Assembly (NCBI GenBank): GCA_013298625.1
Contig: JAAFIF010000068.1
Coordinates: forward strand, 1 to 54,475
Source: Myxococcales bacterium
Lineage (GTDB): Bacteria > Myxococcota_A > Polyangia > Polyangiales > Ga0077539
Length of the DNA stretch: 54,475 nucleotides
Direction: 5' to 3'
This document shows positions 14,650-34,779 of this stretch, one piece after another. The notes beneath the pieces were generated by a model. It was given only the letters and a program-made list of their open reading frames with translations. It was not told where the DNA came from and did no database searches. The position numbers and the translations under genes are program-made. Within the stretch, counting starts at the first letter, position 1; each line of letters opens with the position of its first letter.

Positions 14650-14704
14650 CGGGGAGAGGGCGGGGGCGGGGCGGAGCGCCGCAGTCGTGGGGATGAAGCG
14701 CTGC

Positions 14705-15529
14705 TCAGTCGGCGATGCGAAATGAGAAAAAGACGGTTTCTCCGATTACATCGATTGAGCGCCCATCTGCGACGAAACTGCGCCGCGAAGCTGTGCTGAT
14801 CTCTGCGGTGCGACTTCGATACGGGGCGATCACCTCGAGAGCAGCGGGTGACACTTCGAGGGTGTTCACCGATGGAGACCAGCAGCTCAGCTGCAAGTTG
14901 GGGTCGAGTTGAATCGTGAGATGCAGCTCTTCCGTGCGGGCGTCAGGCGGAGCGATAACGGGAATCACCAAGGGCGTCGCTGGGATCCATCGATAGTCCT
15001 CGGCGGCATTCCAAGCGGCCGCGGCCCGGAGGGCAACCGGCAAGCCCGCGCCCGTCGAAAACGCAGGAAACGCGTCGTCGTGCAGCTTGTCGGCAGAAAA
15101 CCAGCTGAGTTGATCGGCTGCCGCGGTCGTGACGTCACCGACGTATTCGCCAGCGGGTGACGTTGCCTCGATTGTTGCGGTCATCGAGCCCGCTCGCACC
15201 TCGATTGGCGCTCCGCGAACGAGCAACGTCGAATCATCGCGCCATGTACGACGCAACGTACACTCTCCGGCCGTACGTTCGCTGGTCCACGCAATGCGAG
15301 CGTCGACGCGGACAAGCGCGGCACGAAAGACTGCGGGGCGACCACCACCAGCGTACCGAACGAGAGAAATCTCGCTCGTCGGACCGACGACAGCGACGTC
15401 GGATGAGTCAGAATCGAGCGCTCTCGCGTCGCTCGCGGCGTCCGGGGTGAGAGTGGGCGGAGCGCACGCTACGTTCTGCAGCGTCACAACACAGACAACG
15501 CTCAGTCGTCGAGGCGAATGTCTATTCAT
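14705..15529 (-). CDS. hypothetical lipoprotein
   Basis: 274 aa with N-terminal RRLSVVCVVTLQNVACAPP. It overlaps the upstream gene by 8 nt. GC is slightly lower than the surroundings. Confidence 0.5.
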   Translation of the reverse strand: MNRHSPRRLSVVCVVTLQNVACAPPTLTPDAASDARALDSDSSDVAVVGPTSEISLVRYAGGGRPAVFRAALVRVDARIAWTSERTAGECTLRRTWRDDSTLLVRGAPIEVRAGSMTATIEATSPAGEYVGDVTTAAADQLSWFSADKLHDDAFPAFSTGAGLPVALRAAAAWNAAEDYRWIPATPLVIPVIAPPDARTEELHLTIQLDPNLQLSCWSPSVNTLEVSPAALEVIAPYRSRTAEISTASRRSFVADGRSIDVIGETVFFSFRIAD

Positions 15530-16358
15530 AGATGATCCCAGCGGCTACGCGCTCTGTCCGAACCTCGACGTCGAGCGCCTGGGGAGTGAGCGTCGCGCGG
15601 TCAATGTTGACGGAGGACACGTACAGATCGATCCGTCCCGGCGGGATGACCGCGCGAACAGCTGGCGACAAGGTGTACTCGCCGCGATCGCTACGAACGT
15701 TGCAAACGATGCTAGTGTCTTGCGAGGGCGCAGCGAAGCTGATGCGCAGCCGCACATCGCACGGCAGCGACGGACGTCGCCACCGAACCGTGAGCGAGTC
15801 GAAGACCGCCCGCGCCCGCCGGGAGGAGCCCGGCTCGGGCGATAGCAACTGGAGCGCAGGTGGAATGCGCAGCGAAGACGAGAAACGCGTCGTGCCGAGA
15901 CCGAGAGACTCGACGCGAACCGCGAGACCGTCGTTGGGTGTCGGTAGTGAAATCATGGCAAAGTAAGAATTCATGGCAGTGGGAGAGAACTCTTCGACCA
16001 AGCCAGACCACGATACTCGCACCGGTCCGACGGAGGCAGGTTGCTGGTCGTGAAAGACCGTGCGCGTCGAGCATTCTCCAAAGGCCCGTTCCTCAACGCG
16101 TCCAAACATGCCTCCACCGAACGAGAAGCGGCCCGCAGCGCCGTCGGCCCACGGACGCTCGGTGATCCAGAACCAACCAGCGAGAGGCCGCGGCGCAGTG
16201 GACCCGTCCGACCCGAGGCTTACGTCTGCGCGCTCGACGCCGGTGTCGACGACAACAGCATCGCGAGGATCGACATCCGCGTCGATTGCTGGGGTCACGG
16301 ACGCGCCGCACCCAACGAGCGTCGCGACCACCACGGATACGAGTGGACGTCCGCTCAT
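15522..16358 (-). CDS. hypothetical lipoprotein
   Basis: Start MSGRPLVSVVVATLVGCGAS (lipobox LVGCG). Its ATG overlaps the stop of the upstream Cys-rich gene (ATGA at 16355-16358). Confidence 0.5.
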   Translation of the reverse strand: MSGRPLVSVVVATLVGCGASVTPAIDADVDPRDAVVVDTGVERADVSLGSDGSTAPRPLAGWFWITERPWADGAAGRFSFGGGMFGRVEERAFGECSTRTVFHDQQPASVGPVRVSWSGLVEEFSPTAMNSYFAMISLPTPNDGLAVRVESLGLGTTRFSSSLRIPPALQLLSPEPGSSRRARAVFDSLTVRWRRPSLPCDVRLRISFAAPSQDTSIVCNVRSDRGEYTLSPAVRAVIPPGRIDLYVSSVNIDRATLTPQALDVEVRTERVAAGIIYE

Positions 16359-18775: not shown

Positions 18776-19020
18776 TTCTCGAACTGCCCCAATCGTCGAA
18801 GGTTGCTTCGCATGCTGAAGGAGCGAACACAGCCTCTCCCCCAAACTTCGAGGAGACTCGCGTATCGCGACGCTCACGTCAAGGTCGGGCGGTCGAAAAA
18901 GCTCGCTGCGTCACGTTGGCTCCTGCGCTCGTGAAGAAACACCAGTGATGTCAGCGGTGGAATCATCGCTGCCTCGCGCTCTCTTCTCCCCTAGTCTCGG
19001 GGCAATTGCGCAGTACGCTC

Positions 19021-19152
19021 AACTACTACCGCGCCGGGGTTCGTAGTTGTCCCGGTGCGCGGCGGTAGTTTGACTCGAGCTCTGCCGCGCTGATCCGCTC
19101 CGCGCGTCTTCGACGCCCGTCGCGGGCGCGGTATCGAACGCCTCGTGGACGG
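19021..19152 (-). repeat. ~125-bp repeat family, copy 1 (inverted relative to copies 2 and 3)
   Basis: CTACTACCGCGCCGGGGTTCGTAGTTGTCCCGGTGCGCGGCGGTAGTTTGACTCGAG...CGCTGATCCGCTC...CGCCCGTCGCGGGCGCGGTAT aligns to the reverse complement of 22236..22370 at about 80% identity. Confidence 0.6.
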
Positions 19153-19224
19153 TGGCTTGGCGCACGAAGACTGGTCGTTGTGACGACACGGGCGGAGCGA
19201 GGGATCGCCCAAAGTTGCTCAACT

Positions 19225-19448
19225 GAGTAAAAACCTTCCCCCTCAGCCCTGATCCCCCGCTCGCCAAGGTAAAAACCTTCCCCGTGCCGCCATGCACCCG
19301 CCCAGCCGAGGTTGAAACCTCGACTCAGCCGCCATCGCTGCCATCTGACCAAGGTAAAAACCTTCTCCGCGCTGCTCTGCACCCGCTCGACCGAGGTTGA
19401 AACCTCGATCCGCTACCGCTCGCCCGCTCTGACCAAGGTAAAAACCTT
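19225..19448. promoter_or_regulatory. Array of six phased AGGT-N4-ACCT palindromes (A-AGGTAAAAACCT-T alternating with G-AGGTTGAAACCT-C) at 42-bp spacing
   Basis: The palindrome midpoints are about 19231, 19272.5, 19314.5, 19357.5, 19399.5 and 19441.5. This equals 2.6 copies of an 84-bp tandem unit. It lies 130 bp upstream of the 19580 gene start, in a divergent intergenic region. Confidence 0.55.
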
Positions 19449-19579
19449 CCCCAATCCGCCAGACCACGACTCCCTGCCAGCGAGCGCCGCCAAATCCGCA
19501 CGGTCATGCTCTTTCTCGCTTGACTCTTCCCATTGCCCGATGCCACCCCTCGACACTCACACGGGAGGAGTCGTTTCAT

Positions 19580-20479
19580 ATGGGTATCGGGGAACATCCG
19601 GAAGCAGACCGTTTCGACGGCGACGAGCGCGCCGTTCAACAGCAGCACCTTCGCGCCGCTGCGCTCGACGCCATTCGCGCTGAGCTCGACGCGCTCGAGC
19701 TCGACAAGACGCCCGTCTACACGATGAGCGCCTCGTTTGCTGCGCCGACGGCGATCGACGCGTTCGACCGCTGCGCGTCGCTGATGCCGACGATCGAGCG
19801 ATTGCCCGACCTCGACGTCCCCCGATTGAAACGAATCGTCACCTACGCCAACGCGCTGCTCTACTGCAACGCCCGCGTCAACGCATACCAGGAGACCGAA
19901 GACGAGCTCAGTGACGTCGTCGAGGCCGCCCGCGAGATGCGCGGGATGTTGCTCGATGCGACCGCCGTTCCGCTGCGAAAGAAGAAGCTGCTGGCGTCGG
20001 TGGTCGACGAGCTGCGAAAGAAGAACACCACGGCCGAGCTCGTCGATGTGCTCGGCTCGCTCTACGAGCTGCTCTCGCCGTTCGTCGGGTCGTACATCGA
20101 GCAGAGCGACCTCGACCAGGCCAGCAAGCTCGTCGACGCGCTCGCAGCCAAGAGCAAAGCGAAGAACCGCCAGGACGTCACCTACTCGTCCCTCGTCGAT
20201 CAACGACGCAAGGTCGGCGCGCTGCTCGCCGCGGCGTACAAAGACCTCCGCGCCGCGGTCGCGTTCATTCGTCGCGAGCAAGAAGACCAAGACGACTTCG
20301 CGCCTGCCATTCGTGGCGGCGGCCGGCCCGCCAAGCAAGCGAAGGCCGAAGAGCCCGCGAAGCCCGAAGAGCCCAAAGAGCCGAGCAAGCCCGCGGACCC
20401 AGAGAAGCCGCGGTCGCTCACCCGCGGGCTCGTCGACGAGCCGTCGGATGACCCGTTCGATCAGGGCGAGTCGAAGTAA
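19580..20479 (+). CDS. hypothetical alpha-helical protein with charged Lys/Pro/Glu-rich C-terminal tail
   Basis: ATG at 19580 is preceded by GGGAGGAG. 300 aa with no recognised domain. It lies 18 bp upstream of the DUF853 ATPase gene. Confidence 0.6.
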   Translation: MGIGEHPEADRFDGDERAVQQQHLRAAALDAIRAELDALELDKTPVYTMSASFAAPTAIDAFDRCASLMPTIERLPDLDVPRLKRIVTYANALLYCNARVNAYQETEDELSDVVEAAREMRGMLLDATAVPLRKKKLLASVVDELRKKNTTAELVDVLGSLYELLSPFVGSYIEQSDLDQASKLVDALAAKSKAKNRQDVTYSSLVDQRRKVGALLAAAYKDLRAAVAFIRREQEDQDDFAPAIRGGGRPAKQAKAEEPAKPEEPKEPSKPADPEKPRSLTRGLVDEPSDDPFDQGESK

Positions 20480-20497
20480 TTCTCTGCGAGGTCTTCG

Positions 20498-21907
20498 ATG
20501 GTCATGCGACTCGGTCGTTGTTTGCCGCTCAGCAGGGACGGCGCCGCGTCGGTCTACGAGCTTCCCGCGCACCACCTCGTCACCCACGCCTTTCTCACCG
20601 GAATGACCGGGAGCGGAAAGACGGGGCTCTTGTTCGTGCTCGTCGAAGAGGCGCTGCGCGAGGGCGTCCCCGTGGTGCTGGTGGACGTGAAGGGGGATCT
20701 CACGAACCTCTTGCTGGCCTTCGACCTCGATGACCGCGAAGCGTTTCGTCCGTGGATCGACCGCGGCGCGCCGCAGTTCAAAGGAATCCCCGAGGACGAC
20801 ATCATCGCCACGCTCGCGGCCGCCCGCGACCACGGGCTCTCGCGCGCGGGCCTCGACGCCGACGACGTTCGGCGCTTTCGCGAGCGCACGCACGTCCGAA
20901 TCCTCACGCCCGGCACCACCGCGGGAGAGCCCGTTCATCTCTTTTCGTCGCTCGAACACCGATCGGCCCTGTGGGACACGGACGAAGAGGTCGCGCGCGA
21001 CAGCCTCGCGACCGCGGTCTCGCTGGTGCTTCGCCTGGTGGGCCGCGACGGCGACCCCGCGCGCTCGCGCGAACACGTCCTGCTCTCGCTGCTCGCCGAG
21101 CGCCGCCTGCGCGACGGCCGCAGCGCCGAGCTCAGCGAGCTCGTGCGCGAAGTGATCGACCCGCCCATCGAGACCGTCGGCGCGATGGAGCTCGACGCGT
21201 TTATCTCCAAGCGCGACCGCAACGCCCTCGCGGCGGCGCTCAACGCCCTGCTCGCCTCGCCGTCGTTCGCCTCGTGGCGCACGGGCGCGGCCCTCGATGT
21301 GAAGCAATGGCTCGCGCCGCGCGAAGACGGCCGCACGCCCGCGGTGATCGTGAGCGTCGCGCACCTCGACGAGGACGAGCGCCGCGAAGTGCTCGGGCTG
21401 GTCCTCGACGAGCTGTACGCCTACGTTCGCTCGCTCTCGGGCACCTCGGCGCTGCGCGCGCTCATCGCGATCGACGAGGTGTACGGAATGCTTCCTCCGC
21501 ACCCCGCCAACCCCGCGACCAAGCGCCCGATCGTCTCGCTCATGAAGCAAGCGCGCGCGTTCGGCGTGGGAGTCGTCCTGGCAACGCAGAACCCGATGGA
21601 CGTGGACTACAGGGCGCTCAGCAACGCCGGGCTGTGGTTCGTCGGCTGTTTGCAGACCGACGCCGACCGCGAGCGGGTGATCGAAGGTCTCTGCTCGTCC
21701 GACCAAGGGCCCAGCGACCGCGCGAGCCGCAAGGAGCTCTCGGACACGGTCAAGCGCCTCGGCCGCCGCTGGTTCGTCGTGCGAAACGCGCACGACCGCA
21801 ACGCAGGAAGCGCGCTGCTGCAACCGCGGCACACGATCGCGTGGATGCGCGGGCCCCTCACGCGCGCCGAGCTCAAGCGCGTCGCTGCAGAGCGCGACGT
21901 GGAGTGA
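20498..21907 (+). CDS. HerA/FtsK-superfamily P-loop ATPase, DUF853 (YjgR-like)
   Basis: Walker A LTGMTGSGKTGL, Walker B-like ALIAIDEVYGML, and VLATQNPMDVDYRALSNAGLWFVG (the HerA-type TQxP motif). Confidence 0.8.
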   Translation: MVMRLGRCLPLSRDGAASVYELPAHHLVTHAFLTGMTGSGKTGLLFVLVEEALREGVPVVLVDVKGDLTNLLLAFDLDDREAFRPWIDRGAPQFKGIPEDDIIATLAAARDHGLSRAGLDADDVRRFRERTHVRILTPGTTAGEPVHLFSSLEHRSALWDTDEEVARDSLATAVSLVLRLVGRDGDPARSREHVLLSLLAERRLRDGRSAELSELVREVIDPPIETVGAMELDAFISKRDRNALAAALNALLASPSFASWRTGAALDVKQWLAPREDGRTPAVIVSVAHLDEDERREVLGLVLDELYAYVRSLSGTSALRALIAIDEVYGMLPPHPANPATKRPIVSLMKQARAFGVGVVLATQNPMDVDYRALSNAGLWFVGCLQTDADRERVIEGLCSSDQGPSDRASRKELSDTVKRLGRRWFVVRNAHDRNAGSALLQPRHTIAWMRGPLTRAELKRVAAERDVE

Positions 21908-22235
21908 GGGGGAGCGAGCGGAAGAGCGCGAGCGCACACAGTGCGGCCGCGCAGCGGCGTTCGTCGAAGCGATTCTCGCGGCAGAGGTGTCGCGCGAACC
22001 GGGGCGCTCGAGGCTCGTTTTGCAGCAGTTGCGCGCCATCGACGCGGCGTGTCGTGCTTCGCGGTCGGGCTCGCCACATAGGCTCGGCGAACGGGCGAAC
22101 GAAGCGCGATGATGACCACGCGTCGAAGACGGTCGTTCGTTTCGCCAGGCGTGGCTGTCCGGGCTCGTCCTGTCGTGCGGCGAGAAGACGGGGCAGGGCG
22201 TTGCCTGCAAAATGCCCGTGCGCAGAACGCGCCCG

Positions 22236-22370
22236 GCTGTCGTCCTCGTCAACTATACCGCGCCCGCGACGGGCATCGAAGATGCCCAAGCGGATCAGCG
22301 CGGTTGAAATCAAGTCAAACCACTGCCGCGCACCGAGAAAACTACGAACCCCGTCGCGGTAGTGGTAGAG
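22236..22370 (+). repeat. ~125-bp repeat family, copy 2
   Basis: See copy 1. It contains the hairpin GGGCATCgaaGATGCCC and the inverted segment CCACTGCCGCG...CGCGGTAGTGG. Confidence 0.6.
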
Positions 22371-22535
22371 GAGAGCGACGTTTCAACGATCCGTCGAGTT
22401 GGCGACGATCCACGGCACGGACGTTTCGATGGGACACTCCGACGATGGAAAGCGTGTAGACTCCGCCTTCGAAATCAAAACTGACGATCGGCCGAAGTTC
22501 CTGTGGAGGCGATAGTGCTACGCGAGTGCGGTCTG

Positions 22536-22832
22536 ATGTTGATGGTGTTGTCTTCAGGTTGCGCTCCGTGCTCGCGACTGCCGTTCGTTTCGGGACGCCA
22601 GGTCACTCCATCGGAGATCGAGGTTTTTCGCGACGCCGGAATTCAGTCGGACAGCGAAGCAGACGAAGCAGGCTGCGCCGTTCTGTGTCCTTCTCGGTCC
22701 GTCGAACAGTGCGCCTATTACGTCTATTGCCGTGGTGAGGCAGGATTCGGCGCATGCGACCACGATGCGGGAGGCGTGGCATTTGGAAGAGTGTATTGCA
22801 CGTCCTCTGTTTGCTCGAATTCGCTTCCTTGA
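22536..22832 (+). CDS. possible small lipoprotein (low-GC island)
   Basis: MLMVLSSGCAPCS lipobox-like start in a 55%-GC segment. No homology recognised; weak call. Confidence 0.3.
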   Translation: MLMVLSSGCAPCSRLPFVSGRQVTPSEIEVFRDAGIQSDSEADEAGCAVLCPSRSVEQCAYYVYCRGEAGFGACDHDAGGVAFGRVYCTSSVCSNSLP

Positions 22833-22898
22833 CCCGCTTCGAACGCTTGATCCGGGGACTGTGACCAACGGGGACCACGGCAAACGGGGACGGCAAAC

Positions 22899-23111
22899 GG
22901 GGACGGTGTTCAATAGTTCACAACTCCGGGATAACTCCGCGAGATCACGTTGGCCCGCGTCGGCGCTGCCGTCGCTGCGCTGCTGGGCGCGTTCGCAATC
23001 GATTGAACGCCGTCGCTCCCCCGCGGTCTCCCTTGGCCCACCCGCCCTGCAGCCCGCTGTCGCGATCTCGCGGAGTTATCCCGGTGTCGTGAACTATTGA
23101 ACACCGTCCCC
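22899..23111 (+). mobile_element. MITE-like non-autonomous element, copy A (213 bp, about 48-bp terminal inverted repeats)
   Basis: Left end GGGGACGGTGTTCAATAGTTCACAACTCCGGGATAACTCCGCGAGATC. Right end GATCTCGCGGAGTTATCCCGGTGTCGTGAACTATTGAACACCGTCCCC. No ORF is present. Confidence 0.7.
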
Positions 23112-23242
23112 GTACCGTTGTTTCGTCGCCTGTGCACGCTGTCTCGCGAGCGCCGTCGGTGTGGCGCAGTCGATCGCCGCGGCTTGACCACGGCGGGACC
23201 TGCTCGGATCCCTGCCAAACAGTGGCTGACGGCGCAGTCTTG

Positions 23243-25411
23243 CTACAACGTCTTGCGCCAGCATGTCTGAATACGGAGGTCATGCAATTCACACTCGCCT
23301 TCGCCGGATGTGGTCACGCCGAAAGAAATCACGACATCGTCCAGCGGAATATCGATAGCGCAACTTGCGAATGTCCAGTCCGACGTGGGAGTGACGCGTT
23401 GCTGAGAGACAGAGAGCAACACTCGATCCAACGTGTCTAGCCGAATCCAAACGCTCACTGCAAATTGATCGTTACTTCGGGCTCGCAGAGAAAACTGCAC
23501 ATGAGCGAGATCGGGCGCGCCCCGAGAACGCAGGCAGATGACCGCCGCGTCGTCTTGTTCGGCCGATACCCCTCGGACGAGTATCACCTGACGACCGTCT
23601 CGCAACGATTGCTGCACCGAGCACTCGAACCCATTTCCGCAACGGTGTGGAGGTGTTGCCCAATGCTCAGGTAGTTCGCCTGTTCGTGCGTTGTCGATGT
23701 CTGGAGACTCCAGGTTGCTCGATGTAGGAATGTCGTACGAAGAGCCAATGTGCGAAGGCAGCAGCGCGACAGGGGTAGACGCGCGAACACAAATCAGTGC
23801 ATCGGTGGAGCGAAGGGCGTGCGTGATGGAGGAGCTGCCGCTCGGCGTAGTCGAAATCGCAACCGCACCGATAGAATGACAGTGATGCAGGGGATCGAGG
23901 TACAGTTGAGGCTCCCCTGTGGTATCAGTCATAATTTCAGGTGACGCCCACACACCGAACGATGCCGTACGATCGAGTGCGCTCGATTCTAACGCGGGGC
24001 TGCGAAGTGGATCAAGACGGCAAGCCTGCAATTGAAAACCGCTGTTCTGCTGTGGGACAGCAGCGAGAAACTCTCCGTCCAGCGCGCTCAATCCAATGAC
24101 AGAATACGAAACGCCTGCTCGCAGCAACTCGCCGCCAAGTGTTGCGGCATCTCCAAATGCATCCTGCCTCTGAAGATGTGCTAGGTGGGCGAAAACAAGG
24201 CCGCCGCTTGGCGATAGATCTCGCTGCGCCTGCGCAACACGGCGAGCCATCATTGCATCACGGACGATCGACTGCTCGCGCAACGACGCACAGCGGCGAA
24301 GCTCGAGACAATCGCGAACGTAGCTGGAAATTCTCTCAAACAGCGGACAGGAGCCGAGTTCAAATTGCAGTGAGGCGATGAGCTCGCCGGTCTGCTCCAC
24401 CACGCAGTCGCACATGGGACTCGAAGAGGACGCGCGCAGCTCGTCGCGATGTGTACGGTAGAGCGCGCTCGCTCGCTTGCGCCACGCGAGCGAAATGTGT
24501 GGGTGTCGAATAGTCCACCGAAACGCAGAGTCCAGACCCTGCGCGTCGATACCGACAATACAAATTCGCTCCGAAATGCCGTGCTCGAAGTTCCATGCCC
24601 GCAACCACAGCAGCATATCGAGAAACTCTCGAGTTCGGTGAATCCACCAGCCCGTATCGAGCAGAATTTTATGTGAGTCTCGGGACTCGCCGCAAACAAA
24701 TTGGTTCAGCTCAGCGATGTCGAGATCGTTCGCTTCTACTGCTATCCAGCGAAGCCATCCAAGTGAAGCTGCGCCTTGCGCAATTGCCAAGCGTGCTGCC
24801 CCGAACTCTGCGGTGCCGTGAGTGGTTTCACCAACTCCCACGATATCAGAAGCGGAAAACACCTTCGCGCCGACTTCGGATAGCAGCGGCTGAATTGCGA
24901 GCTCTGCCAGCGTGTCGATGGACCTGCGCGTCCAGCGGAATGCACGAGGTGGTTGACTCGGCCGGAGAGAACAGTCAACTCCGGGGACACACCAAGTCCA
25001 ATCAGTGACCTGCGCGCCGTCGTGGAATGCAGCAGCAACCCAGCCGCCTTCGTCGAGACACTGCAGGTCCCAGGTGCCGGTCGCATCTTCCGCAAGAGTC
25101 GCGCAAACTGCGCGGTTTTGCACCGTTGTACTGCATGCGAGCACGACGACGTCGCGTGCACTGGACTGAAGTTGAACTCTGCCACGAAGCCAACGTTCTG
25201 GACGATCTGGTTCAACACCCGTCTGGTCGCGTCGTCGTTGCAGCGTGCCACTAACGCTGACTACAAAGATCTCGTGTCTGTCCGGCGCTCCGACCGACGA
25301 TCGGTGGCGGATGCCGTGCGCATCGGTGCGCAGATTTGCCGTGATCGGCAACACACTCTGGTTTGGCCAAGTCACCACGACACACATCCTCGCGGCTGGA
25401 ATATTCTGCAT
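23243..25411 (-). CDS. erythromycin esterase (Ere/ChaN-like) family protein with extra N- and C-terminal domains
   Basis: FSASDIVGVGETTHGTAEF and LLDTGWWIHRTREFLDMLLWLRAWN match the Ere-family GEATHGxxEF and WxxRNxxM...WLR motifs. 722 aa at about 54% GC. Confidence 0.7.
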   Translation of the reverse strand: MQNIPAARMCVVVTWPNQSVLPITANLRTDAHGIRHRSSVGAPDRHEIFVVSVSGTLQRRRDQTGVEPDRPERWLRGRVQLQSSARDVVVLACSTTVQNRAVCATLAEDATGTWDLQCLDEGGWVAAAFHDGAQVTDWTWCVPGVDCSLRPSQPPRAFRWTRRSIDTLAELAIQPLLSEVGAKVFSASDIVGVGETTHGTAEFGAARLAIAQGAASLGWLRWIAVEANDLDIAELNQFVCGESRDSHKILLDTGWWIHRTREFLDMLLWLRAWNFEHGISERICIVGIDAQGLDSAFRWTIRHPHISLAWRKRASALYRTHRDELRASSSSPMCDCVVEQTGELIASLQFELGSCPLFERISSYVRDCLELRRCASLREQSIVRDAMMARRVAQAQRDLSPSGGLVFAHLAHLQRQDAFGDAATLGGELLRAGVSYSVIGLSALDGEFLAAVPQQNSGFQLQACRLDPLRSPALESSALDRTASFGVWASPEIMTDTTGEPQLYLDPLHHCHSIGAVAISTTPSGSSSITHALRSTDALICVRASTPVALLPSHIGSSYDIPTSSNLESPDIDNARTGELPEHWATPPHRCGNGFECSVQQSLRDGRQVILVRGVSAEQDDAAVICLRSRGAPDLAHVQFSLRARSNDQFAVSVWIRLDTLDRVLLSVSQQRVTPTSDWTFASCAIDIPLDDVVISFGVTTSGEGECELHDLRIQTCWRKTL

Positions 25412-25486
25412 GAAGTTCTACCCTCTGGCTGAAGAGTGCGTGCGTCCGTCGCGAAGGAGGAGATAAGCGTGAGGTTGTGGGCCAAC

Positions 25487-25698
25487 GGGGACGGTGTTCA
25501 ATAGTTCACGACACCGGGATAACTCCGCGAGATCACGTTGGCCCGCGTCCGCGCTGCCGTCGCTGCGCTGCTGGGCGCGTTCGCAATCGATTGAACGCCG
25601 TCGCTCCCCCACGGTCTCCCTTGGCCCACCCGCCCTGCAGCCCGCTGTCGCGATCTCGCGGAGTTATCCCGGAGTCGTGAACTATTGAACACCGTCCC
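25487..25698 (+). mobile_element. MITE-like element, copy B (same orientation as copy A, about 95% identical)
   Basis: GGGGACGGTGTTCAATAGTTCACGACACCGGGATAACTCCGCGAGATC...GATCTCGCGGAGTTATCCCGGAGTCGTGAACTATTGAACACCGTCCC. Confidence 0.7.
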
Positions 25699-25837
25699 TG
25701 TGGCGCTGCGTGCGAACCGCGCACGACCGCAACGCGGGCAGCGCGCTGCTGCAACCGCGGCACACGATCGCGTGGATGCGCGGGCCCCTCACGCGCGCCG
25801 AGCTCGAGCGCGTCGCTGCAGAGCGCGAAGCCGAGTG
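25699..25837 (+). pseudogene. 3'-terminal fragment of a DUF853 ATPase paralogue
   Basis: It encodes ...AHDRNAGSALLQPRHTIAWMRGPLTRAELERVAAEREAE*, which is about 93% nucleotide-identical to 21787-21907 (the end of the intact DUF853 gene). It begins immediately after MITE copy B. Confidence 0.5.
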
Positions 25838-25847
25838 ACGGGAGCGA

Positions 25848-26363
25848 GTGAAAGCACGAGCGCACACAGAGCGGCTGAAGGCATCGGTCGTCACAGCGGT
25901 GCGGCTTGCGTTGGCCTCGGTCACGCGCCGCGGGCTCAGCGTGCGCTGGTCTGTCTGGGCGCTCGCGCTGTTGTCGAGAGGATGCCTCGCTCGAATCGCA
26001 GTGAGCTCTTCGCTGTCGTCGGTCGCCGTGCTCGCGTTGCCGATGCGATTGCGCGCTGCGCTCGTGTTGCAGCAGGTGTCCGCGGATCCAGCAGCGCGAA
26101 GGCTCGCAGAGCAGCGCGCGCTGGCGGCCATCACGTGGAAGATGGACCTCGACGCAGTGCGGGGAGAGGGGCGCGTCGAGGGCGAAGCGCGCGGTGAAGA
26201 GAAGGCTCGCACCGCAGCGCTTCGCGCGTCGATCGTCGACCTGTGCGACGTGCTTGAGATCGCGCTGACCGACGAGCAACGCGCCGCGCTCGCGGCGATG
26301 ACGTGGACCGAGCTCGACTCGCTGCGACTGCGCATCAAGAGCGAACACCGCCGGCCCGAGTGA
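25848..26363 (+). CDS. hypothetical protein (171 aa)
   Basis: High GC3. A degenerate, truncated homologue (…RSRLVLQQLRAIDAAC…) lies at 21910-22080 just downstream of the intact DUF853 gene. Confidence 0.5.
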   Translation: MKARAHTERLKASVVTAVRLALASVTRRGLSVRWSVWALALLSRGCLARIAVSSSLSSVAVLALPMRLRAALVLQQVSADPAARRLAEQRALAAITWKMDLDAVRGEGRVEGEARGEEKARTAALRASIVDLCDVLEIALTDEQRAALAAMTWTELDSLRLRIKSEHRRPE

Positions 26364-27133: not shown

Positions 27134-27162
27134 GTCAGGGCTTCTTCTTCCCTGACTTTCCT
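27134..27162 (+). terminator. hairpin between convergent lipoprotein and pth genes
   Basis: GTCAGGG-cttcttctt-CCCTGAC followed by TTTCC. It overlaps the pth stop codon. Confidence 0.35.
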
Positions 27163-27728
27163 GCGGGGGGATTGCTCTTGGCGATCGCGGCTTCGATGCC
27201 GTCGCGCAAGGTGAGCTCGACGAGCTCGGCCGCGCGATCGAGCACCGCGGGCAGCTCCGCTTGCTCTTCGCGCGAGAACGGCGAGAGCACGTACGAGTCC
27301 ACAGCGCCCACCGTGGGGCGGCCGATCCCGACGCGAATCCGCGCGAAATCAGCGCCCAATCGCGCGGTGATGTCCCGCAGCCCGTTGTGCCCCGCGTGCC
27401 CTCCGCCGAACTTCGCGCGCACTTGCCCGAACGGAAGCTCGAGCTCGTCGTGCACCACGATCACCTTGCCGATCACGAAGCGCTGGTCCATCGCGCACTT
27501 CTGCACGGACTGACCCGAGAGGTTCATGAACGTCTGCGGCATGAGCAGCGAGACCGACTGGCCCGCGAGGATGCCTTTGCACGCGAGGGCGCTGTACTTC
27601 TCGCGCCACTCGGACGCGCCCGCGAGCGAGTGCAGCCGTTCGAGCACCATGAATCCGACGTTGTGGCGGTGCGCGCGGTAGGAGGGACCGGGGTTTCCGA
27701 GGCCGACGAGGAGCATCGACCGCGTCAT
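27135..27728 (-). CDS. pth: peptidyl-tRNA hydrolase
   Basis: LLVGLGNPGPSYRAHRHNVGFMV...GGHAGHNGLRDI. Confidence 0.9.
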   Translation of the reverse strand: MTRSMLLVGLGNPGPSYRAHRHNVGFMVLERLHSLAGASEWREKYSALACKGILAGQSVSLLMPQTFMNLSGQSVQKCAMDQRFVIGKVIVVHDELELPFGQVRAKFGGGHAGHNGLRDITARLGADFARIRVGIGRPTVGAVDSYVLSPFSREEQAELPAVLDRAAELVELTLRDGIEAAIAKSNPPAGKSGKKKP

Positions 27729-27859: not shown

Positions 27860-28537
27860 TCACTTCTTCTTGGCGGGCGCTGCGGCCTTGGCGTCCTTGG
27901 CGGGCGCAGCTGCCTTGGCGTCCTTGCCAGCGGCCGGAGCCGCGGCGGCGCCAGCGGCAGGAGCGGCCTCGCCGCGGTCCTTCTCGGGCGCCACGACGGA
28001 GACGATCGTCTGGTTGGCGTCGAGCATCACGCGCACGCCTTCGGCGAGCACGAGGGCCTTGGTGGCGACCGCGTGGTGGAGCTCGACGTTGGTGATGTCG
28101 ACCTCGAGCTTGGCGGGGATCTTGTCGGGCGTGCAGCGGACCGGCAGCTTGCGGAAGATCTGCTGCAGGATTCCACCAGCGGCGACGCCCTTGGACTTGC
28201 CGACGAGCACCAGAGGAACCTCGACGTCCACCGGGCGATCCAGGCTGACCGTGTACAGGTCCGCGTGGAGCAGGTCGCGCGTGACGGGGTGGTGCTCGAA
28301 GTTCTTCACCATCGCGAGCTGATCAACGCCGTCGATCGAGAGCGTGAACACGGTGTTGCGGCCCATGGGCTGGAGCAACACGGTCTTGACCGACTTGGGG
28401 TCGATCGCGATCGACTGCGCGGTCTTGCCCGGTCCGTACACGATGGCGGGGAGCTTGTTGCTCGCGCGGAGGCGGCGGGCAGGGCCCTTTCCCGAGGAGG
28501 CGCGGTTCTGGGCTTCGACTTTGATCGTGGTCTGCAT
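27860..28537 (-). CDS. rplY: 50S ribosomal protein L25/general stress protein Ctc with Lys/Ala-rich tail
   Basis: MQTTIKVEAQNRASSGKGPARRLRASNKLPAIVYG...; the L25 beta-barrel and Ctc C-domain pattern are present. Confidence 0.85.
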   Translation of the reverse strand: MQTTIKVEAQNRASSGKGPARRLRASNKLPAIVYGPGKTAQSIAIDPKSVKTVLLQPMGRNTVFTLSIDGVDQLAMVKNFEHHPVTRDLLHADLYTVSLDRPVDVEVPLVLVGKSKGVAAGGILQQIFRKLPVRCTPDKIPAKLEVDITNVELHHAVATKALVLAEGVRVMLDANQTIVSVVAPEKDRGEAAPAAGAAAAPAAGKDAKAAAPAKDAKAAAPAKKK

Positions 28538-28717
28538 GGCTGGTGTCTCTCCCCCATCCGTTCGTGCAGCGGGGCCCTTCGTGTTCGTGACCGACGACGC
28601 GACCGTTCGCGTGGCTATCGGCAGGGGCCCTTCGGTTGCGAGTGCGCTGCTTCGCGGCCGTGGGAGGGGGCGGGGGTGTATCTCACTGTGTTTCTGCGGT
28701 CAACCAGCGCAGGGCCG

Positions 28718-31700
28718 TCACGGGACGCCCATCGCGTGCTTGATCAGCCCTTCGACGATGCGGCCGAAGCGCCGAACGACCGTGTCCGTGTCGGGCCCGT
28801 CGCACTCGACGTAGTGCGGAAACAGCACCTCGGGCAACGGCTGCACGGCGATCTGCGCGCAGCACATCTTGTGGCGCCGCGTGAGCTCGAGCGCGAGGTG
28901 CTTGAGCGACGCCGCAGAGCACTCGGTGGGCATTCCGTCGGAGATCATCACCAGCAATTTCGCACGCCGACGCGAGGCGCGCGCGACGTTGGCCGCGTGC
29001 CACAGGGCGCCCGCGTCGTTGTTGCCTCCGCCCGCTTCGAGCGCGTGCACCGCGGGGCACCGCGCGTCGCCGGCGTCGTAGATCACCCTGTCGGTGAAGC
29101 CGAAGATGCGCACATCGACGCTGGGCATCGCGCGGGCGGCCTCGGCGATGAGCGCGCCGAAGAGCCTCGCGCGCGGCATGTTCTCGCCGCTCGCCATCGA
29201 GCCCGAGCAGTCGATCACGACGCCAATGAACAGGTCGGTCTTCACTTGGATCTCTCGCGCGATGAGCACGCGAGGGTCGCCGCGGGTCACGAGCGCGCGC
29301 GTTCGGGGCGCGTCCACGCGTCGACCCCGCAAGCGAAGGCGCTCGGGCTGCAAGTGAAGGCCGAGCCGCTCGAGGTAGACCCGCAGCGTCCCGGCCGAGC
29401 GACGGACGCGCGTCGAGAGGGCGTGGTGCTTCGAGCTCTCGTAGCGCACGCGAACGACCTCGGTGATCAAGTCGAAATCCGTCGCCTCCGTGACGTTGAG
29501 CCAGCGCTTCGCGCCGGGGCGAGCGCCGGACATCCCGTCGTCCTCGCTGCGCTTGGGGTTGACGATGCGGTCGACCTCGCGGCGGATCTCTTCGTCGGTG
29601 ATGCCTTCGGTCGCGCGCTCGACGTCGCCGGGCTCTCCTTGGCCCACGTCCTCGTGCGTCGAGCAGACCCCGAGCAGCCGGCACTCGTCGCCGAAGATCG
29701 CGCGCACCTCGCGGGCGATCGCGAGCAGCTCGCGCATGGTGCTCTTGCGAAACGCTGTTCCTGAGAAGAGGGCGAGCGCGCGGGAGACCTTCTCGTCGTT
29801 GTGCCGATCGCCCAGGCCCATGCGCAGCGCGCGCACCCAACGGGCGAAGCTCGACCCGGATTTCTCCAGCGCTTGCAGCAGGCGACCGTGCTCGACGATC
29901 ACGCTCTGCGCGTCGATGGCGAAGCGCACCGACGCGGTCGAGAGCACCTCGAGCATCGCGCCCCGCAGCACGTCGAACAGCGTGTCGATCGCGATCGGCC
30001 GGTCCATGTGCTGAAACGCGTACGCCGTCAGCTTCTTGAGCCTGTCGCCGTACTCCGCGTCGAGCGCGCGGATGTTGCGCTCGAGGTGCTCGTCGGCGAC
30101 CAGGTTGAGCAGCGGCCCGATGCCCTCCGCTGCGCCCTCGTCCCACGCCTCGCGCTGCTCGACGCCGCGGTGATACCGGTGGTGCCCGAGCTCGTGCAGG
30201 ATCAGCCCCTCGACCACGGCGCGACCGAAGCGCTCCCCGCGCAGCAGCGGGAGGGCGCTGATGAAGATCCGATCCTCGTCGAGCCGCGTGTACCCGAGCG
30301 TCTGATCGCGCGCGAGCTGCAGGGACATCGCGCGGCCGGTCAGCTCGACGCTCACGAGCGCTCCCCACGCGAACGTCTTGGCGATCGCGCGCAGCTTCGC
30401 CGTTCGCGCTGTGCGAAAGAACCGCCCTCGGTTCAGCTCGTTGATCGCCGCTTGTCGGGTCTCTGCGAGGCTCGCGCCCGAGAGCAGCTGCGACCACAGC
30501 TGGCTCGCGATCGCGGGGCAGGCGCGCAGCAGCTCGATCAGCGCGCTCTCGGCGATCGTTTGCGCTCCTCCCGTAAGCGCTGCGTCGACCATGGCCGAGA
30601 CGTGCTCGGGCGAAGCTGCGCCGAGCCAGTCGGGCGCGCCCGTCGGCTCCGCGAACCATCCCTGCGCGAGCACCACGAAGCCCGCGGTCGCGCCCCGCGC
30701 CCACAGCCAGCGCGCTGCGCGCCGACGAAGCGCGTCTTCGCTGGCGGGCAAGCGCAACAGCGCGCGCTCGACCTCGACCGCGAGCGTCCTACGGCCGTCG
30801 TCCGTCGCGTACGGGCCGTCCGCGAAGTCCGAGTTGGACAGAATACGTCCGAGCACGAACGTCGCGTTCGCCGCGCACGACGCGCCGAGGAGCTCGACGC
30901 TGACCTCGATCTCTCGTGGGCCGAGCGCGGCGAAGAGCGCGCCCATCGTCGCGTCAGTGAGCCTCGTGTCCGCCGAGCGCGCTCGTTGGATCGCGCGATC
31001 GAGCGCGGCCACTTCGCCCCGCGCGACGCGGGCGAGCTCGATCTCGACGGCGGTCTGCGCGCCGATCGCCGCGAGCGCCGCGTCGAGACGCGCGCGCATC
31101 GGGCCGGTCCACGACGGGCTCATCGCGATGATCGCGGCGCGCGCGGGCGAGGGAGGATCCATCGCGAGCGCGTCGATGAGCGTGAACCGGCGCTCGTCTG
31201 GGGCCGAATCGAGCTCGCGCGCCACGCGCTCGGCGTCCGTGGTCCGCAGCTCCTTGAGCCTCTCGCGCAGCGCGCGCGCCTCCGCAGAGAGCTCTGCGCG
31301 CTTGCTCACCGGCCGCTCGAGCCACGGGGCCAGCAGCGCAGCGCGCGCGGCTGGCAGCTGTCGTCGCGCCTCGCGAGCGTGCGACTCGAACGGCTCGATC
31401 AGCGCGCGTCCCGCGCTCGTGCGGCTGAGCGCGACCAGCAGCAGCGCCGCGTTGTCGCGCACGATCTCCCGGTCGTCGCCGCGCGCTTCGTCGAGCGCGA
31501 GCGCCACGACCGGCTGCCAGAGCGAGGCCTCGAACAGCGCGCCTCCGTCGCGCCCCGCGGTGATCTCGACGGCGCGCGCTGCCGCCGCCCACGCGCGCGC
31601 TGCGAGCTCGGGCGGCCATGGATCCAGCGTCGAGAGCACGTGCTCGATCGATCCGTGCCTGCGCGCGATCTCGACGAAGCGCAGCGCGTGCCGCTCCCAG

Positions 31701-33787
31701 CGATACAGCCACGCGCTCGCGAGCAGACCGAGGTCCGTTCGGTGCGCGAGGTGCGTCGCCGCGAGCTCGTCGAGCAGCTCGCGCTCGGCTTCTTCACGGG
31801 GCCAGTACATCGGCAGCACCGTCGCGACGTGCTCGGGCCCGTCGTCCGCGCGCAGCAGCGCCGCGCAGATCAGCGCCGCTGGCTTGGGCTCGTCGCGGTG
31901 CTCGAAGGCCGCAGCCACGCCGCGCGTCGGCCAGTGCAAAAACGGCACGATCGTCGTGGCCAGCGTCGCGTCGTCGACGTACGTGAGGTCGTCGAGCGCC
32001 GCAGCGTCGGGGCGCTGGATCGGCGCCGACGTCTCGATCTCGGCCGTCACCTCGGCGCGCTCGACGGTCTCGGCGGTCACGACCCGCAGCGCGCGATCGA
32101 GCTCGATCCGCGCGAGGGACACGGCCGTTGCGAGCGAGCACCGGCGCTGGGCGCTCAGCGCGTCGAGCAGCGCGCGGGCGGCGTCCGTGTCGGGCTCGTT
32201 GCGCGCGCGCAGCGCGGACGCAAGCGTGTCCGCGGGCTGAGCGTCGAGCGCGTCGACGAGCCACGCGAACACCGTGGGCGAGGGCGGCGCGCCCTTCGTG
32301 CAGTGATCCCAGAGCGCTTCGACCGCCGCGGCGCCGAGCCTGCGCGCGACGATGACCCTCGGATCGGACGCGGAGATGTGCGGGCGCGCGCGTCGAGCGT
32401 GCTCGAGGAGGGCTTCGAGCGCAGCGCGCGGCCCGAAGAGCTCGACGACGCGCTCTGCACACGGGCCGCCGAGCTCGAGCGTCGCCGTCGCGAGCTGCGT
32501 CACGGCGCTCGGAGTTCGAGCCTCCACGATGGACGCGAGCCGTTGCCACAGCGCGATCGACGACGACGGCTCGACGACGAGCAGCGCGGCTTCGCGCGGG
32601 TGCGCTTCGATCGCCGCGACGAGCGCGTCTTCGCCGACGAACGCGAGCGACCGCTCTGCGCTGCTCCGCTGGTCGATGTGCGCGATCGACGCGAGCAACG
32701 TGAGGCGCTCGGCGTCGAGCGGGGCGCTCGGGTCGCGGCGAAGCGGGTGGCGCTCGGCGAGCGCGCGCGCAGCCTCGGCGTTGGCCGTAGTGATCATGCT
32801 CGAGGCGACGCGCGCGCGGATCGCGATCGCGCACCACGCAGGGTGCAGCGGAATCGAGACGAGCGTCTGCGGCGCGAACAAGAAGCACGCGACCACGCCT
32901 CCCGCGGACCAGCTGCCCTTTCGCTTGAACAGCGCCCACGCCGAGGCCGCGATGCGCACGCGCGTCGCGTCGTCGTCGCACTCGCACACGAGGCGCCACC
33001 AGAGCGTCGCGCTCGGGTCGGGAGGCGTCGCGTCGGACCACTCGAGCCCGAGCAGCTCGTCGATGGCGTCGAAGGTTTCGGGATCAGCGGCGTCGGGCTC
33101 GGCGTCGATCGAGCGCGCCGGCTGCTGCGCGATCCACTCATTGAGGGCCTCGCGCGCGACCTTGGCGACGTACGCGACGGCGAGCGGCGCTTCGATCCAA
33201 CCTCGACGAACGGCGTCGAGCACGAACAGCACGCCCGCCGGCGGCGTCGCGCTCGCGCTCGCGAGCCACGCGCGCAGGCGCGCTTCGACTTGCGGGCGAA
33301 GCGTCGGGTCTGCGAGCAGCGGGAGCTCGTAGAGCTCGGCGCCCACCGGCGCGCCGACGGCGATGGCGCTCGCGCGCACGTCGTCGCGTCGGTGCGTGGT
33401 GGCGACGAGCCAACGGCCGGGCTCCGCGGCGCTGAGCGTTCGAAGCGAGCGGATGGCGGCTGCGCGGACGGCGTCGTGATCGTCGTCGAGCCCTCGCTCG
33501 ATGGCGTCGCGCGCCCGGCCTCCGCGCGCGCCAGAGAGCGCGCTCAGCGCCGCCGCGCGGACCGCTGGCCGCCCGTCGGCGAGCGCGGCGTTGCTGAGCG
33601 CTCCGAGCCAGGCGAGACGGCGTCGCAGCGAGCGCGCGGCGAGCTCGTACATCGCGCGCACAACCGACGCCTCTGGGGTCTGATCCGCTCCGTCGGTGAG
33701 CGCGCGATAGAGCGCGATGTCGTTGATGTGCGGCGCAGCGCGGAGCGCGTCGTCGGCTGGGGCAGAGTGCGTGGGTTGGTCGTGCAC
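28718..33787 (-). CDS. giant (1689 aa) HEAT/ARM-like repeat protein with C-terminal putative HExxH metallopeptidase and VWA domains
   Basis: The C-terminal VWA MIDAS motif is VVIDCSGSMASG...LLVMISDGMPT. LILHELGHHRYH is a putative metallopeptidase motif. The N-terminal 1200 aa are Ala/Leu/Arg-rich helical repeats (DDDHDAVRAAAIRSLRTL). The plus-strand ORF 29801..33799 is the Arg-rich antisense. Confidence 0.75.
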   Translation of the reverse strand: MHDQPTHSAPADDALRAAPHINDIALYRALTDGADQTPEASVVRAMYELAARSLRRRLAWLGALSNAALADGRPAVRAAALSALSGARGGRARDAIERGLDDDHDAVRAAAIRSLRTLSAAEPGRWLVATTHRRDDVRASAIAVGAPVGAELYELPLLADPTLRPQVEARLRAWLASASATPPAGVLFVLDAVRRGWIEAPLAVAYVAKVAREALNEWIAQQPARSIDAEPDAADPETFDAIDELLGLEWSDATPPDPSATLWWRLVCECDDDATRVRIAASAWALFKRKGSWSAGGVVACFLFAPQTLVSIPLHPAWCAIAIRARVASSMITTANAEAARALAERHPLRRDPSAPLDAERLTLLASIAHIDQRSSAERSLAFVGEDALVAAIEAHPREAALLVVEPSSSIALWQRLASIVEARTPSAVTQLATATLELGGPCAERVVELFGPRAALEALLEHARRARPHISASDPRVIVARRLGAAAVEALWDHCTKGAPPSPTVFAWLVDALDAQPADTLASALRARNEPDTDAARALLDALSAQRRCSLATAVSLARIELDRALRVVTAETVERAEVTAEIETSAPIQRPDAAALDDLTYVDDATLATTIVPFLHWPTRGVAAAFEHRDEPKPAALICAALLRADDGPEHVATVLPMYWPREEAERELLDELAATHLAHRTDLGLLASAWLYRWERHALRFVEIARRHGSIEHVLSTLDPWPPELAARAWAAAARAVEITAGRDGGALFEASLWQPVVALALDEARGDDREIVRDNAALLLVALSRTSAGRALIEPFESHAREARRQLPAARAALLAPWLERPVSKRAELSAEARALRERLKELRTTDAERVARELDSAPDERRFTLIDALAMDPPSPARAAIIAMSPSWTGPMRARLDAALAAIGAQTAVEIELARVARGEVAALDRAIQRARSADTRLTDATMGALFAALGPREIEVSVELLGASCAANATFVLGRILSNSDFADGPYATDDGRRTLAVEVERALLRLPASEDALRRRAARWLWARGATAGFVVLAQGWFAEPTGAPDWLGAASPEHVSAMVDAALTGGAQTIAESALIELLRACPAIASQLWSQLLSGASLAETRQAAINELNRGRFFRTARTAKLRAIAKTFAWGALVSVELTGRAMSLQLARDQTLGYTRLDEDRIFISALPLLRGERFGRAVVEGLILHELGHHRYHRGVEQREAWDEGAAEGIGPLLNLVADEHLERNIRALDAEYGDRLKKLTAYAFQHMDRPIAIDTLFDVLRGAMLEVLSTASVRFAIDAQSVIVEHGRLLQALEKSGSSFARWVRALRMGLGDRHNDEKVSRALALFSGTAFRKSTMRELLAIAREVRAIFGDECRLLGVCSTHEDVGQGEPGDVERATEGITDEEIRREVDRIVNPKRSEDDGMSGARPGAKRWLNVTEATDFDLITEVVRVRYESSKHHALSTRVRRSAGTLRVYLERLGLHLQPERLRLRGRRVDAPRTRALVTRGDPRVLIAREIQVKTDLFIGVVIDCSGSMASGENMPRARLFGALIAEAARAMPSVDVRIFGFTDRVIYDAGDARCPAVHALEAGGGNNDAGALWHAANVARASRRRAKLLVMISDGMPTECSAASLKHLALELTRRHKMCCAQIAVQPLPEVLFPHYVECDGPDTDTVVRRFGRIVEGLIKHAMGVP

Positions 33788-33934
33788 GGCGGCTCTTGAT
33801 CGAGCGTTGTAAACCGACTCGCGACGCTGCGGGGCGTCTGCGCGTGGATATCTGCGGGAGAAATAGCAACGCAGCGGCCGCGAGTGTCGCGCGGTCGCTG
33901 CGTTCGGAGCGTCGTTGCGCGCCGAGGTGACAGG

Positions 33935-34050
33935 CTCTACCGCGCCCGCGACGGTCGTCGATGAACGTCACTGCGCAGCGGCGGTTGAAATGAAGTCGAA
34001 CCACCACCGCGCACGGAGAAAGCTACGATGCCCGTTGCGGCAATGGTTGA
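33935..34050 (+). repeat. ~125-bp repeat family, copy 3
   Basis: CTACCGCGCCCGCGACGG...GCGGTTGAAATGAAGTCGAACCACCACCGCGCACGGAGAAAGCTACGATGCCCGTTGCGGCAATGGTTGAG is about 80% identical to copy 2. It lies about 150 bp upstream of the giant gene's start. Confidence 0.55.
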
Positions 34051-34779
34051 GCGACTGCCTGCCGGCAGATCGAACGTCAGAGCGGAGAGCGACGCTGTGG
34101 GCCATCGATCGTTCGGTTGAGTGGAAGACGGTGTGTCCAAAGACGCCCGGTCGGTGGTGCTGATTGGGCATCGGATCCCGCGCGCGACTGCTCCCACCAG
34201 AGAAGTCGCCGAACTCGCGCGGTCGTCGTGGCTCTCGCGATCGTCGCCGTTCGCTTCGATCGCAGCCGTGGCTGCTGCTCACCCTCGGCGATCGTCGCGT
34301 CGGTCCACGAAGGAAACGCGGGCGGCGATCGGGGGGTGAACAACGTGTGTCTCGTGAAGTGCGGCCCTCAGGTCTCTCGAATCCCTCTGCGCCTGCGCGG
34401 CGGACGCCGCGGAGGCCGTGCTGGTCGAGCGCTCAACGCGCCGCTGGCTTCGTGGTGAAGACAGCGTGCGCTGGCGCTGCGGGGGGCGGCGCGCGGATTC
34501 GCTCCGCGTGCGCGATGCCCCTTCGGGCCCGCGCGTGCCGCCTCGTGTGAAGGCGGATCATGTTGGTCAGTCCTTTCACTGGTGAGTTCGCGTCGTCGTG
34601 AAAAAGAGCGGGCCGCGGTGGTGGCTCTGACCTCGCGCTTGCTCGCGCCGAGGTGTCAGCCTCCCGATGCTCTCGACGGCGCGCGTCGGTGACGCACGAG
34701 ATCGCGAGCGGCGACGGTTTCGGACACTAGTCATCCTCGCCCGCTTCGCAAGGTGGCGCGCTACGCTCGCGGCCTCACT

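Follow-up and report, generated by a model that had tools for sequence, protein, structure and literature searches.

The locus examined here raises the question of what a very large protein that ends in a domain with the HExxH motif and a VWA domain does when the ATPase gene normally associated with such a pair is missing from its neighborhood. The protein, 1689 residues long, is encoded in a stretch of 54,475 nucleotides (nt) from a Myxococcales bacterium (contig JAAFIF010000068.1, assembly GCA_013298625.1), the whole of which is hereafter called the window. A preliminary description of this DNA proposed that the C-terminal module belongs with MoxR-type AAA+ ATPases. The comparative analysis bears this out: an orthologous ATPase gene with AAA_5 and AAA_3 matches is located downstream of the large gene, on the same strand, in 69 of the 78 informative genome loci. 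The reading that we consider likely is that the 1689-residue protein serves as the large adaptor subunit in a MoxR-class AAA+/VWA remodelling system encoded by two genes, and that the target of this system is probably cut by a zincin domain of the adaptor. Conservation of the adaptor/ATPase system extends over Polyangia (Myxococcota) and some Planctomycetota.

A family of large proteins of uniform length

Both the list of open reading frames (ORFs) and re-translation of the coordinates recover the 1689-residue frame together with the motifs previously ascribed to it, namely LILHELGHHRYH (H1198, E1199, H1202, H1206), NLVADEHLER (1228-1237), DCSGSM (1526-1531) and ISDG (1615-1618). The guanine plus cytosine (GC) content of the window is about 70%. 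At the three codon positions of the minus-strand frame, GC content (GC1/2/3) is 0.745/0.533/0.900 over the 1689 codons, and GC3 stays at 0.85-0.92 in every 200-codon block along the full length. The antisense ORF on the plus strand shows values of 0.896/0.546/0.758; because these mirror the codon-position pattern of the true frame in a genome with 70% GC, this ORF is a shadow frame, in agreement with the preliminary description, which had taken it to be spurious. The alternative considered there, that the gene is split into several smaller coding sequences, is contradicted by about 120 representatives of 1600-1800 residues that can be aligned from end to end. The 1689-residue ORF is a genuine gene, of a length conserved in the family. 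In one close relative (P0004, on a 12467-bp contig), the gene is called as two products of 1331 and 340 residues, the latter with a VWA_CoxE match, that overlap by 8 nt; this probably reflects a frameshift or a sequencing error.

Searches of the whole protein against Pfam, NCBIfam, PADLOC and PDB sequences yield only sub-threshold HEAT and VWA matches. A word-index search identifies nine relatives that align end to end, all but two of them with 1670-1707 residues. The picture of a tiny family of nine proteins is overturned by an exhaustive profile search started from the C-terminal 590 residues, which identifies 2227 representatives at E<=1e-3, of which 427 reach E<=1e-30; the best 150 of these matches are almost all 1600-1800 residues long and carry the query module at the C-terminus. 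Full-length homologues are 36-63% identical to the window protein, and its nearest relative, from a metagenome-assembled genome (MAG) of Polyangiales, shows 88% identity in the C-terminal part. All conservation counts below refer to an alignment of 124 full-length representatives, and the Pfam survey covers 29 diverse members. In a scan of one genome per species, the family is present in at least 136 genomes. The best 80 of these 136 are mostly Polyangia (Polyangiales, Sandaracinaceae, Nannocystaceae, Kofleriaceae and Haliangiales), among them the cultured Minicystis rosea DSM 24000 and Plesiocystis pacifica SIR-1; the remaining hosts include Planctomycetota (Pirellulaceae, Gemmatales and Rhodopirellula). 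A literature search found no paper on the large-adaptor family.

The MoxR-class ATPase partner

The gap between the adaptor gene and the ATPase gene does not exceed 130 nt in 58 of the 69 linked loci and is usually 15-130 nt; a 4-nt overlap of the genes in L006 and L007 points to translational coupling. All of the more distant relatives whose gene neighborhoods were compared carry the ATPase gene, either directly downstream, as in L006 and L007, or 2-4 kb away. Clustering of the flanking ORFs of 84 loci shows that the adaptor and the ATPase are the only widely common neighbors.

The partner ATPases (about 370 residues) consist of an N-terminal domain of about 100 residues and an AAA_5 module, with matches to Pfam AAA_5, AAA and AAA_3. 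Sequence identity among them is 61-100%, their Walker A (GPQGCGKT) and Walker B (LDELN) motifs do not vary, and the names given to them in the source databases are ‘MoxR family ATPase’, ‘MoxR-like ATPase’ or ‘NorQ’. The N-terminal domain has no Pfam match and might bind the substrate or the adaptor. Its roughly 100 residues are conserved and include the motif RAPKVVLSDD...PGVPCLV (e.g., L007, 10974-12080, and L004, 15169-16278). The best PDB match of the partner ATPases is midasin, with a whole-protein score of 76-81 bits, but several AAA modules contribute to this sum. Taken singly in the profile search, the two best midasin modules reach 24-26 bits, a level similar to that of NorQ and CbbQ, which are the closest solved single-module ATPases (about 30 bits). 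Orthology with midasin is therefore rejected, and only membership in the class is claimed.

In a Byssovorax MAG (GCA_046351295.1), the two genes are located on different contigs, the adaptor on JAXLYT010000073.1 (L015) and the ATPase on JAXLYT010000020.1 (L089), so that loss of linkage is not loss of the partner. The neighbors of the ATPase gene in L089 encode a C-type lectin protein and a BolA protein. In one distant relative (L001, 15149-16312), a gene for a Kelch-type beta-propeller is inserted between the large gene and the ATPase gene, an arrangement that recalls MoxR-vWA-beta-propeller systems and is seen in no locus other than L001.

Domain architecture of the adaptor

The placement of a VWA domain at the C-terminus in the preliminary description agrees with both the fold comparisons and the profile matches. 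In an AlphaFold2 model of residues 1100-1689 (mean predicted local distance difference test score, pLDDT, 75.7), residues 1519-1689 form a compact VWA domain. [quoted passage not shown] The sole solved relative found by sequence profile is the VWA domain of the cobaltochelatase subunit CobT (21vt_A, E=3.7e-6). Pfam models match the 29 members as VWA_2 (19), CobT_C (17, best E=4.4e-5) and VWA_CoxE (10, best E=4.4e-9), the window protein itself scoring below the cut-offs with VWA_2 (17.5 bits) and CobT_C (12.7 bits). The MIDAS residues D1526, S1528, S1530 and D1617 are invariant in all 124 representatives. As judged by sequence profiles and the predicted fold, the C-terminal domain is a VWA domain of the CobT/CoxE/NorD type. 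It is preceded by an Arg-rich segment that aligns with the equivalent segment of CobT and contains the invariant residues L1475, G1476, R1485, G1488, D1492, P1505 and R1511. This segment is modelled with low confidence (model residues 380-417) and may contact the ATPase.

Upstream of this connector, the HExxH domain retains every residue of a catalytic type. The two histidines and the glutamate of HELGH are each invariant (124/124), H1206 is conserved in 118 of the 124 sequences, and N1228, D1232, E1233, L1235, E1236 and R1237 of the NLVADEHLER segment, which is helical in both predicted models, are again invariant. Modelled alone with 34 sequences, the domain reaches a pLDDT of 89.8 and a predicted template modelling score of 0.88. 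In this model, three strands are followed by the HExxH helix, one further helix and the helix that carries D1232-E1233-H-L-E1236; the HExxH motif lies there on a helix after a mixed sheet with a candidate ligand-bearing helix downstream, which is the zincin (gluzincin-like) layout. The fold matches of the domain are mostly to peptidases; a Foldseek search with the model gives no significant match. Among the closest known systems are minigluzincins and M48/M56 peptidases (projannalysin, selecase, HtpX, BepA and ZMPSTE24). The Pfam survey detects no DUF2201_N, DUF2201 or peptidase model, except for a single Zincin_1 match with E=0.087. Because H1198, E1199, H1202, D1232, E1233 and E1236 are invariant and no peptidase model matches, the domain is best described as zincin-type, without a close described relative, and it is probably catalytic.

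The proteins with DUF2201_N and DUF2201, which are MoxR-linked HExxH/VWA proteins of about 400 residues, have the same domain order and the same kind of partner, so that the adaptor could be such a protein with a gained N-terminal HEAT extension. The shared order of HExxH and then VWA and the MoxR-class partner in the family would fit; however, neither PF13203 nor PF09967 matches any of the 29 members at E<=1, nor the window protein, and the VWA matches are to VWA_2, CobT_C and VWA_CoxE. The suggestion that these DUF2201 models would fit the HExxH and VWA domains is accordingly not supported by sequence, and we regard this origin as highly unlikely.

The similarity to CobT raises a different alternative, in which the protein is not a protease but a chelatase-like or cofactor-insertion chaperone: a target metalloenzyme would be opened by the CobT/NorD-type VWA domain and the ATPase, with the HExxH site serving to hold or deliver a metal ion and not to cut peptide bonds. 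CoxDE and CobST share the metal-insertion mode of NorQD. Of the solved VWA proteins, CobT is closest by sequence, the pre-VWA segment included, CobT_C matches more than half of the surveyed members, and NorD, among the top fold matches, belongs to a metal-insertion system (PMC13036017). The family nevertheless lacks a CobN- or BchH-like domain, and its neighborhoods contain no conserved third gene or target enzyme. The HExxH glutamate is a general base, for which the storage of a metal would have no use, and it is retained without exception; moreover, the fold matches of this domain, although not significant, are mostly to peptidases. With these points taken together, metal insertion appears an unlikely function.

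The N-terminal part is far less conserved. Pfam HEAT_2 matches residues 64-143 of the window protein with 26.0 bits, against a cut-off of 27.7, and matches 25 of the 29 family members (best E=3e-10); a comparison of the family profile with alphaRep/HEAT chains gives E-values down to 5.5e-22, solely at profile positions 41-123. The HEAT repeats that the preliminary description extended over about 1200 residues are thus detectable only at residues 64-143 or so. The following region has no Pfam, NCBIfam or PDB match, and comparison of residues 146-1110 with a HEAT unit and with themselves (hhalign) reveals neither cryptic HEAT units nor internal repeats. Of the Ala/Leu/Arg-rich helical repeats previously described, the composition stands (A 21%, L 12-13%, R 9-11%), but repeats as such are not confirmed; this middle region of about 950 residues is probably helical. 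It can be aligned in all 124 representatives, with a column conservation of 25-45% over residues 150-1110; from residue 1140 onward, column conservation is 50-80%.

The N-terminal two thirds show 40-60% identity where the C-terminus shows 80-92%. Against orthologues of the window's clade, the ratio of nonsynonymous to synonymous substitution rates (dN/dS) is 0.62-0.72 in the N-terminal two thirds versus 0.14-0.22 in the C-terminal third; these ratios are upper estimates because dS is compressed at GC3 = 0.9. Fast evolution of the N-terminal part is common to this clade and the other family members. By these estimates from sequence, the VWA/MIDAS and peptidase parts remain under purifying selection in the window's clade.

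The fast-evolving N-terminal part would fit a conflict or immunity module like the vWA-MoxR systems described in multicellular bacteria, in which the helical region would sense an invader, the MoxR ATPase would be the switch and the peptidase the effector. The vWA proteins of such systems are reported to be fused to HEAT/TPR scaffolds and, rarely, to metallopeptidases (Kaur et al. 2020, PMC7159879). The hosts, mostly Polyangia, are social bacteria, and the partner ATPases have weak bpMoxR matches. However, compression of dS inflates the very ratios on which this argument draws, the length and architecture are uniform and the gene neighborhoods housekeeping-like, PADLOC gives no match, and the flanking ORFs of the 84 loci include no conserved third component (VMAP, FtsH or beta-propeller) beside the pair. 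A role in conflict therefore seems quite improbable.

Proposed mechanism and relation to known systems

The preferred reading, a remodelling system that probably includes proteolysis, divides the adaptor into five parts: the short N-terminal HEAT-like module, some 950 fast-evolving residues, the zincin-type HExxH domain, the Arg-rich connector and the CobT/NorD-type VWA domain. An ATPase hexamer would dock on the VWA domain and the connector, a target protein would be held by the MIDAS site and the N-terminal scaffold, and ATP hydrolysis would strain the adaptor. This would remodel the target, which the zincin domain would probably cleave. With this domain in the strained part of the adaptor, either the remodelled target could be cleaved or the ATPase could gate the peptidase. 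The identities of the domains, their conservation and the pairing of the genes are shown by the data; docking, pulling and cleavage are proposed by analogy with NorQ/NorD, CbbQ/CbbO, CobS/CobT and Rea1. In NorQD, a portion of the VWA protein inserts into the pore of the ATPase; the target is held by the MIDAS site and the N-terminal domain, and ATP hydrolysis meanwhile twists and stretches the linker of the adaptor (PMC13036017).

Several observations weigh against this interpretation. As the preliminary description stated, no MoxR gene adjoins the large gene in the window: when the 54 kb are searched by tblastn with five partner ATPases, no match has an E-value below 0.6, and a survey of Walker A sites finds only two, one in an ABC-type context and one HerA-like. 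The MIDAS, earlier called intact, retains DxSxS and the SDG aspartate, but the position of the canonical threonine appears to be taken by the invariant N1589-N1590-D1591 (NND), as suggested by the spacing and by the alignment with CobT, which pairs NND with NID. The third metal ligand of the zincin-like site is placed on the NLVADEHLER helix as a candidate, with no particular residue assigned. Finally, the compact VWA model has no obvious finger insertion of the NorD kind, so that the contact with the ATPase may differ from that in NorQD.

Among the closest known systems, NorQ/NorD and CbbQ/CbbO (the CbbQ/NorQ/GvpN group) are likewise encoded by two genes, one for an AAA_5 ATPase and one for a partner that ends in a MIDAS-bearing VWA domain. 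The layout of the adaptor, with an N-terminal domain, a linker and a C-terminal VWA domain, is that of NorD, which is also among the best fold matches; however, with 1700 residues the adaptor is two to three times longer than NorD (69 kDa, PMC13036017). In further contrast to NorQD and CbbQO, the adaptor contains the zincin-like HExxH domain and HEAT-like repeats, the ATPase has about 100 extra N-terminal residues, the order of genes is adaptor and then ATPase, and no target-enzyme gene is linked. CobT is resembled in the VWA sequence, the Arg-rich pre-VWA segment and the N-x-D at the MIDAS threonine position, but, unlike CobS/CobT, the system has no CobN partner and no CobT N-terminal domain, and the NCBIfam CobT model scores 13 bits against a cut-off of 759. 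With Rea1/Midasin (MDN1), the top MIDAS fold match, the system shares the logic of an AAA_5 ring, a long helical part, an acidic loop and a MIDAS domain; Midasin, however, combines six AAA modules in a single polypeptide that lacks a peptidase domain, whereas here the ATPase is separate and has a single module. The likeness is a resemblance of design and not orthology.

To our knowledge, MoxR/VWA pairs are widespread and few have a known mechanism, these being NorQD, CbbQO, RavA/ViaA, the chelatases and Rea1. The family described here is an unstudied variant of this MoxR/VWA remodelling kind and adds an apparently uncharacterised pair of uniform architecture, the adaptor of which contains a zincin-like domain without a Pfam model or a close solved structure and about 950 unmatched residues. 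What has been annotated as ‘hypothetical protein’ becomes a testable two-component system. If the peptidase is active, MoxR-type remodelling would be linked to proteolysis. A stronger version of this idea, which we put forward only tentatively, is that of a novel ATP-dependent proteolytic or processing machine in which a MoxR-class ring acts through a VWA/MIDAS adaptor that carries the zincin site: a substrate captured by the MIDAS would be held by the 1000-residue scaffold and would be cleaved solely under the strain that the ATPase exerts on the adaptor. Such a machine would be a functional parallel to FtsH or Lon built from midasin-like parts.

The window's clade and the rplY-pth context

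The absence of the ATPase gene is shared throughout the window's clade. The clade comprises seven loci (the window, L002, L008, L009, L010, L011 and L090) in which the large gene is located directly upstream of rplY-pth, with a KirBac-like gene upstream wherever a match was detected, and no ATPase gene is found within 10 kb. A metagenome scan for intermediate relatives identifies one locus, again with the rplY-pth arrangement. Given that the C-terminal third has a low dN/dS (see above) and that every invariant residue is retained, the clade most likely has its ATPase partner encoded at another place in the genome. On this reading, the lack of an ATPase gene in the window reflects a lineage-specific rearrangement rather than a new, stand-alone architecture.

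The association with rplY-pth itself looks incidental. The 180-nt spacer between the large gene and rplY contains, in six loci, a promoter-like TTGACC-N17-TACAC box directly after the stop codon of the large gene, an invariant 28-nt leader, CCCGCCCCCTCCCACGGCCGCGAAGCAG, and a GGGGGAG ribosome-binding site. Because the spacer holds its own conserved box, leader and ribosome-binding site, rplY-pth appears, from these sequence signals, to be a transcription unit of its own. No terminator-like site is found at 28538-28717, and an Rfam scan of the whole window gives no match; the spacer may be an rplY leader or a regulatory element. The earlier statement that the large gene replaces prs in the usual prs-rplY-pth order holds in the positional sense only, the window containing no prs signature and rplY having its own promoter-like box.

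The surroundings of the large gene have also been compared to vaults, in analogy with VPARP, which contains a VWA domain. [quoted passage not shown] Bacterial MVP homologues have been described in Myxococcales (bioRxiv 10.1101/872010). The analogy fails, however, at the level of domains, the window protein and the 29 members having no PARP, VIT or BRCT domain, and at the level of gene context: no MVP homologue is located within 10 kb in any of the other 79 genome loci, co-location in one of 80 is about what chance would give for a 10-Mb genome (0.16 expected, by a rough estimate), and the conserved partner is the ATPase and not MVP. This explanation is extremely unlikely.

Other features of the window

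The coordinates of the features are collected in Table 1.

Table 1. Features of the large gene and its surroundings in the window, with their positions and the basis for each assignment.
Feature	Position	Strand	Basis
Gene for the 1689-residue large adaptor protein	28718..33787	-	GTG start, stop 28718-28720
PBS-type HEAT-like repeats at the N-terminus, about three units (residues 64-143)	33359..33598	-	Pfam HEAT_2, family profile
Ala/Leu/Arg-rich middle region, no recognisable family (residues 144-1128)	30404..33358	-	composition, fast divergence
Zincin-like HExxH domain (residues 1129-1411)	29555..30403	-	
HELGH, catalytic-type zinc motif (H1198, E1199, H1202)	30182..30196	-	invariance
NLVADEHLER helix, candidate ‘glutamate helix’ with third metal ligand	30077..30106	-	invariance, models
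Conserved Arg-rich segment before VWA (residues 1470-1518)	29234..29380	-	invariance, CobT alignment
VWA domain with MIDAS (residues 1519-1689)	28721..29233	-	Foldseek, profiles, invariance
MIDAS motif DCSGS	29198-29212	-	
MIDAS motif SDG	28934-28942	-	
Antisense ORF of 1332 residues, shadow frame, non-gene	29801..33799	+	GC1/2/3 mirrors the true frame
Intergenic region, promoter-like box and rplY leader	28538..28717	-	conserved in six loci
rplY, ribosomal protein L25/CTC, downstream neighbor	27860..28537	-	Pfam Ribosomal_L25p, Ribosomal_TL5_C
pth, peptidyl-tRNA hydrolase	27135..27728	-	Pfam Pept_tRNA_hydro, E=5.8e-59
KirBac-like potassium channel gene, divergent	upstream of the large gene		
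Major vault protein homologue, 840 residues	44893-47415	-	MVP_shoulder E=9e-25, Vault_3 E=6e-8

The stretch that separates the large gene's start from the divergent KirBac-like gene (33788-34752, about 965 nt) is unusually long for an intergenic region; it contains no credible ORF as judged by codon-position GC and has no Rfam match. Elsewhere in the window, GC content drops to 0.61-0.66 at about 14000-26000, compared with 0.68-0.73 over most of the rest. This low-GC stretch, which may be an acquired island, contains genes for a HerA-like ATPase (20498-21907) and an erythromycin-esterase-like protein (23243-25411) and several ORFs without a Pfam match. Near the start of the window (1162-3186, minus strand), a ParA/MinD-type ATPase is fused to a DnaJ-like stretch and an HTH_25 domain, and its gene adjoins that of SelA, the selenocysteine synthase (3369-4343, minus strand).

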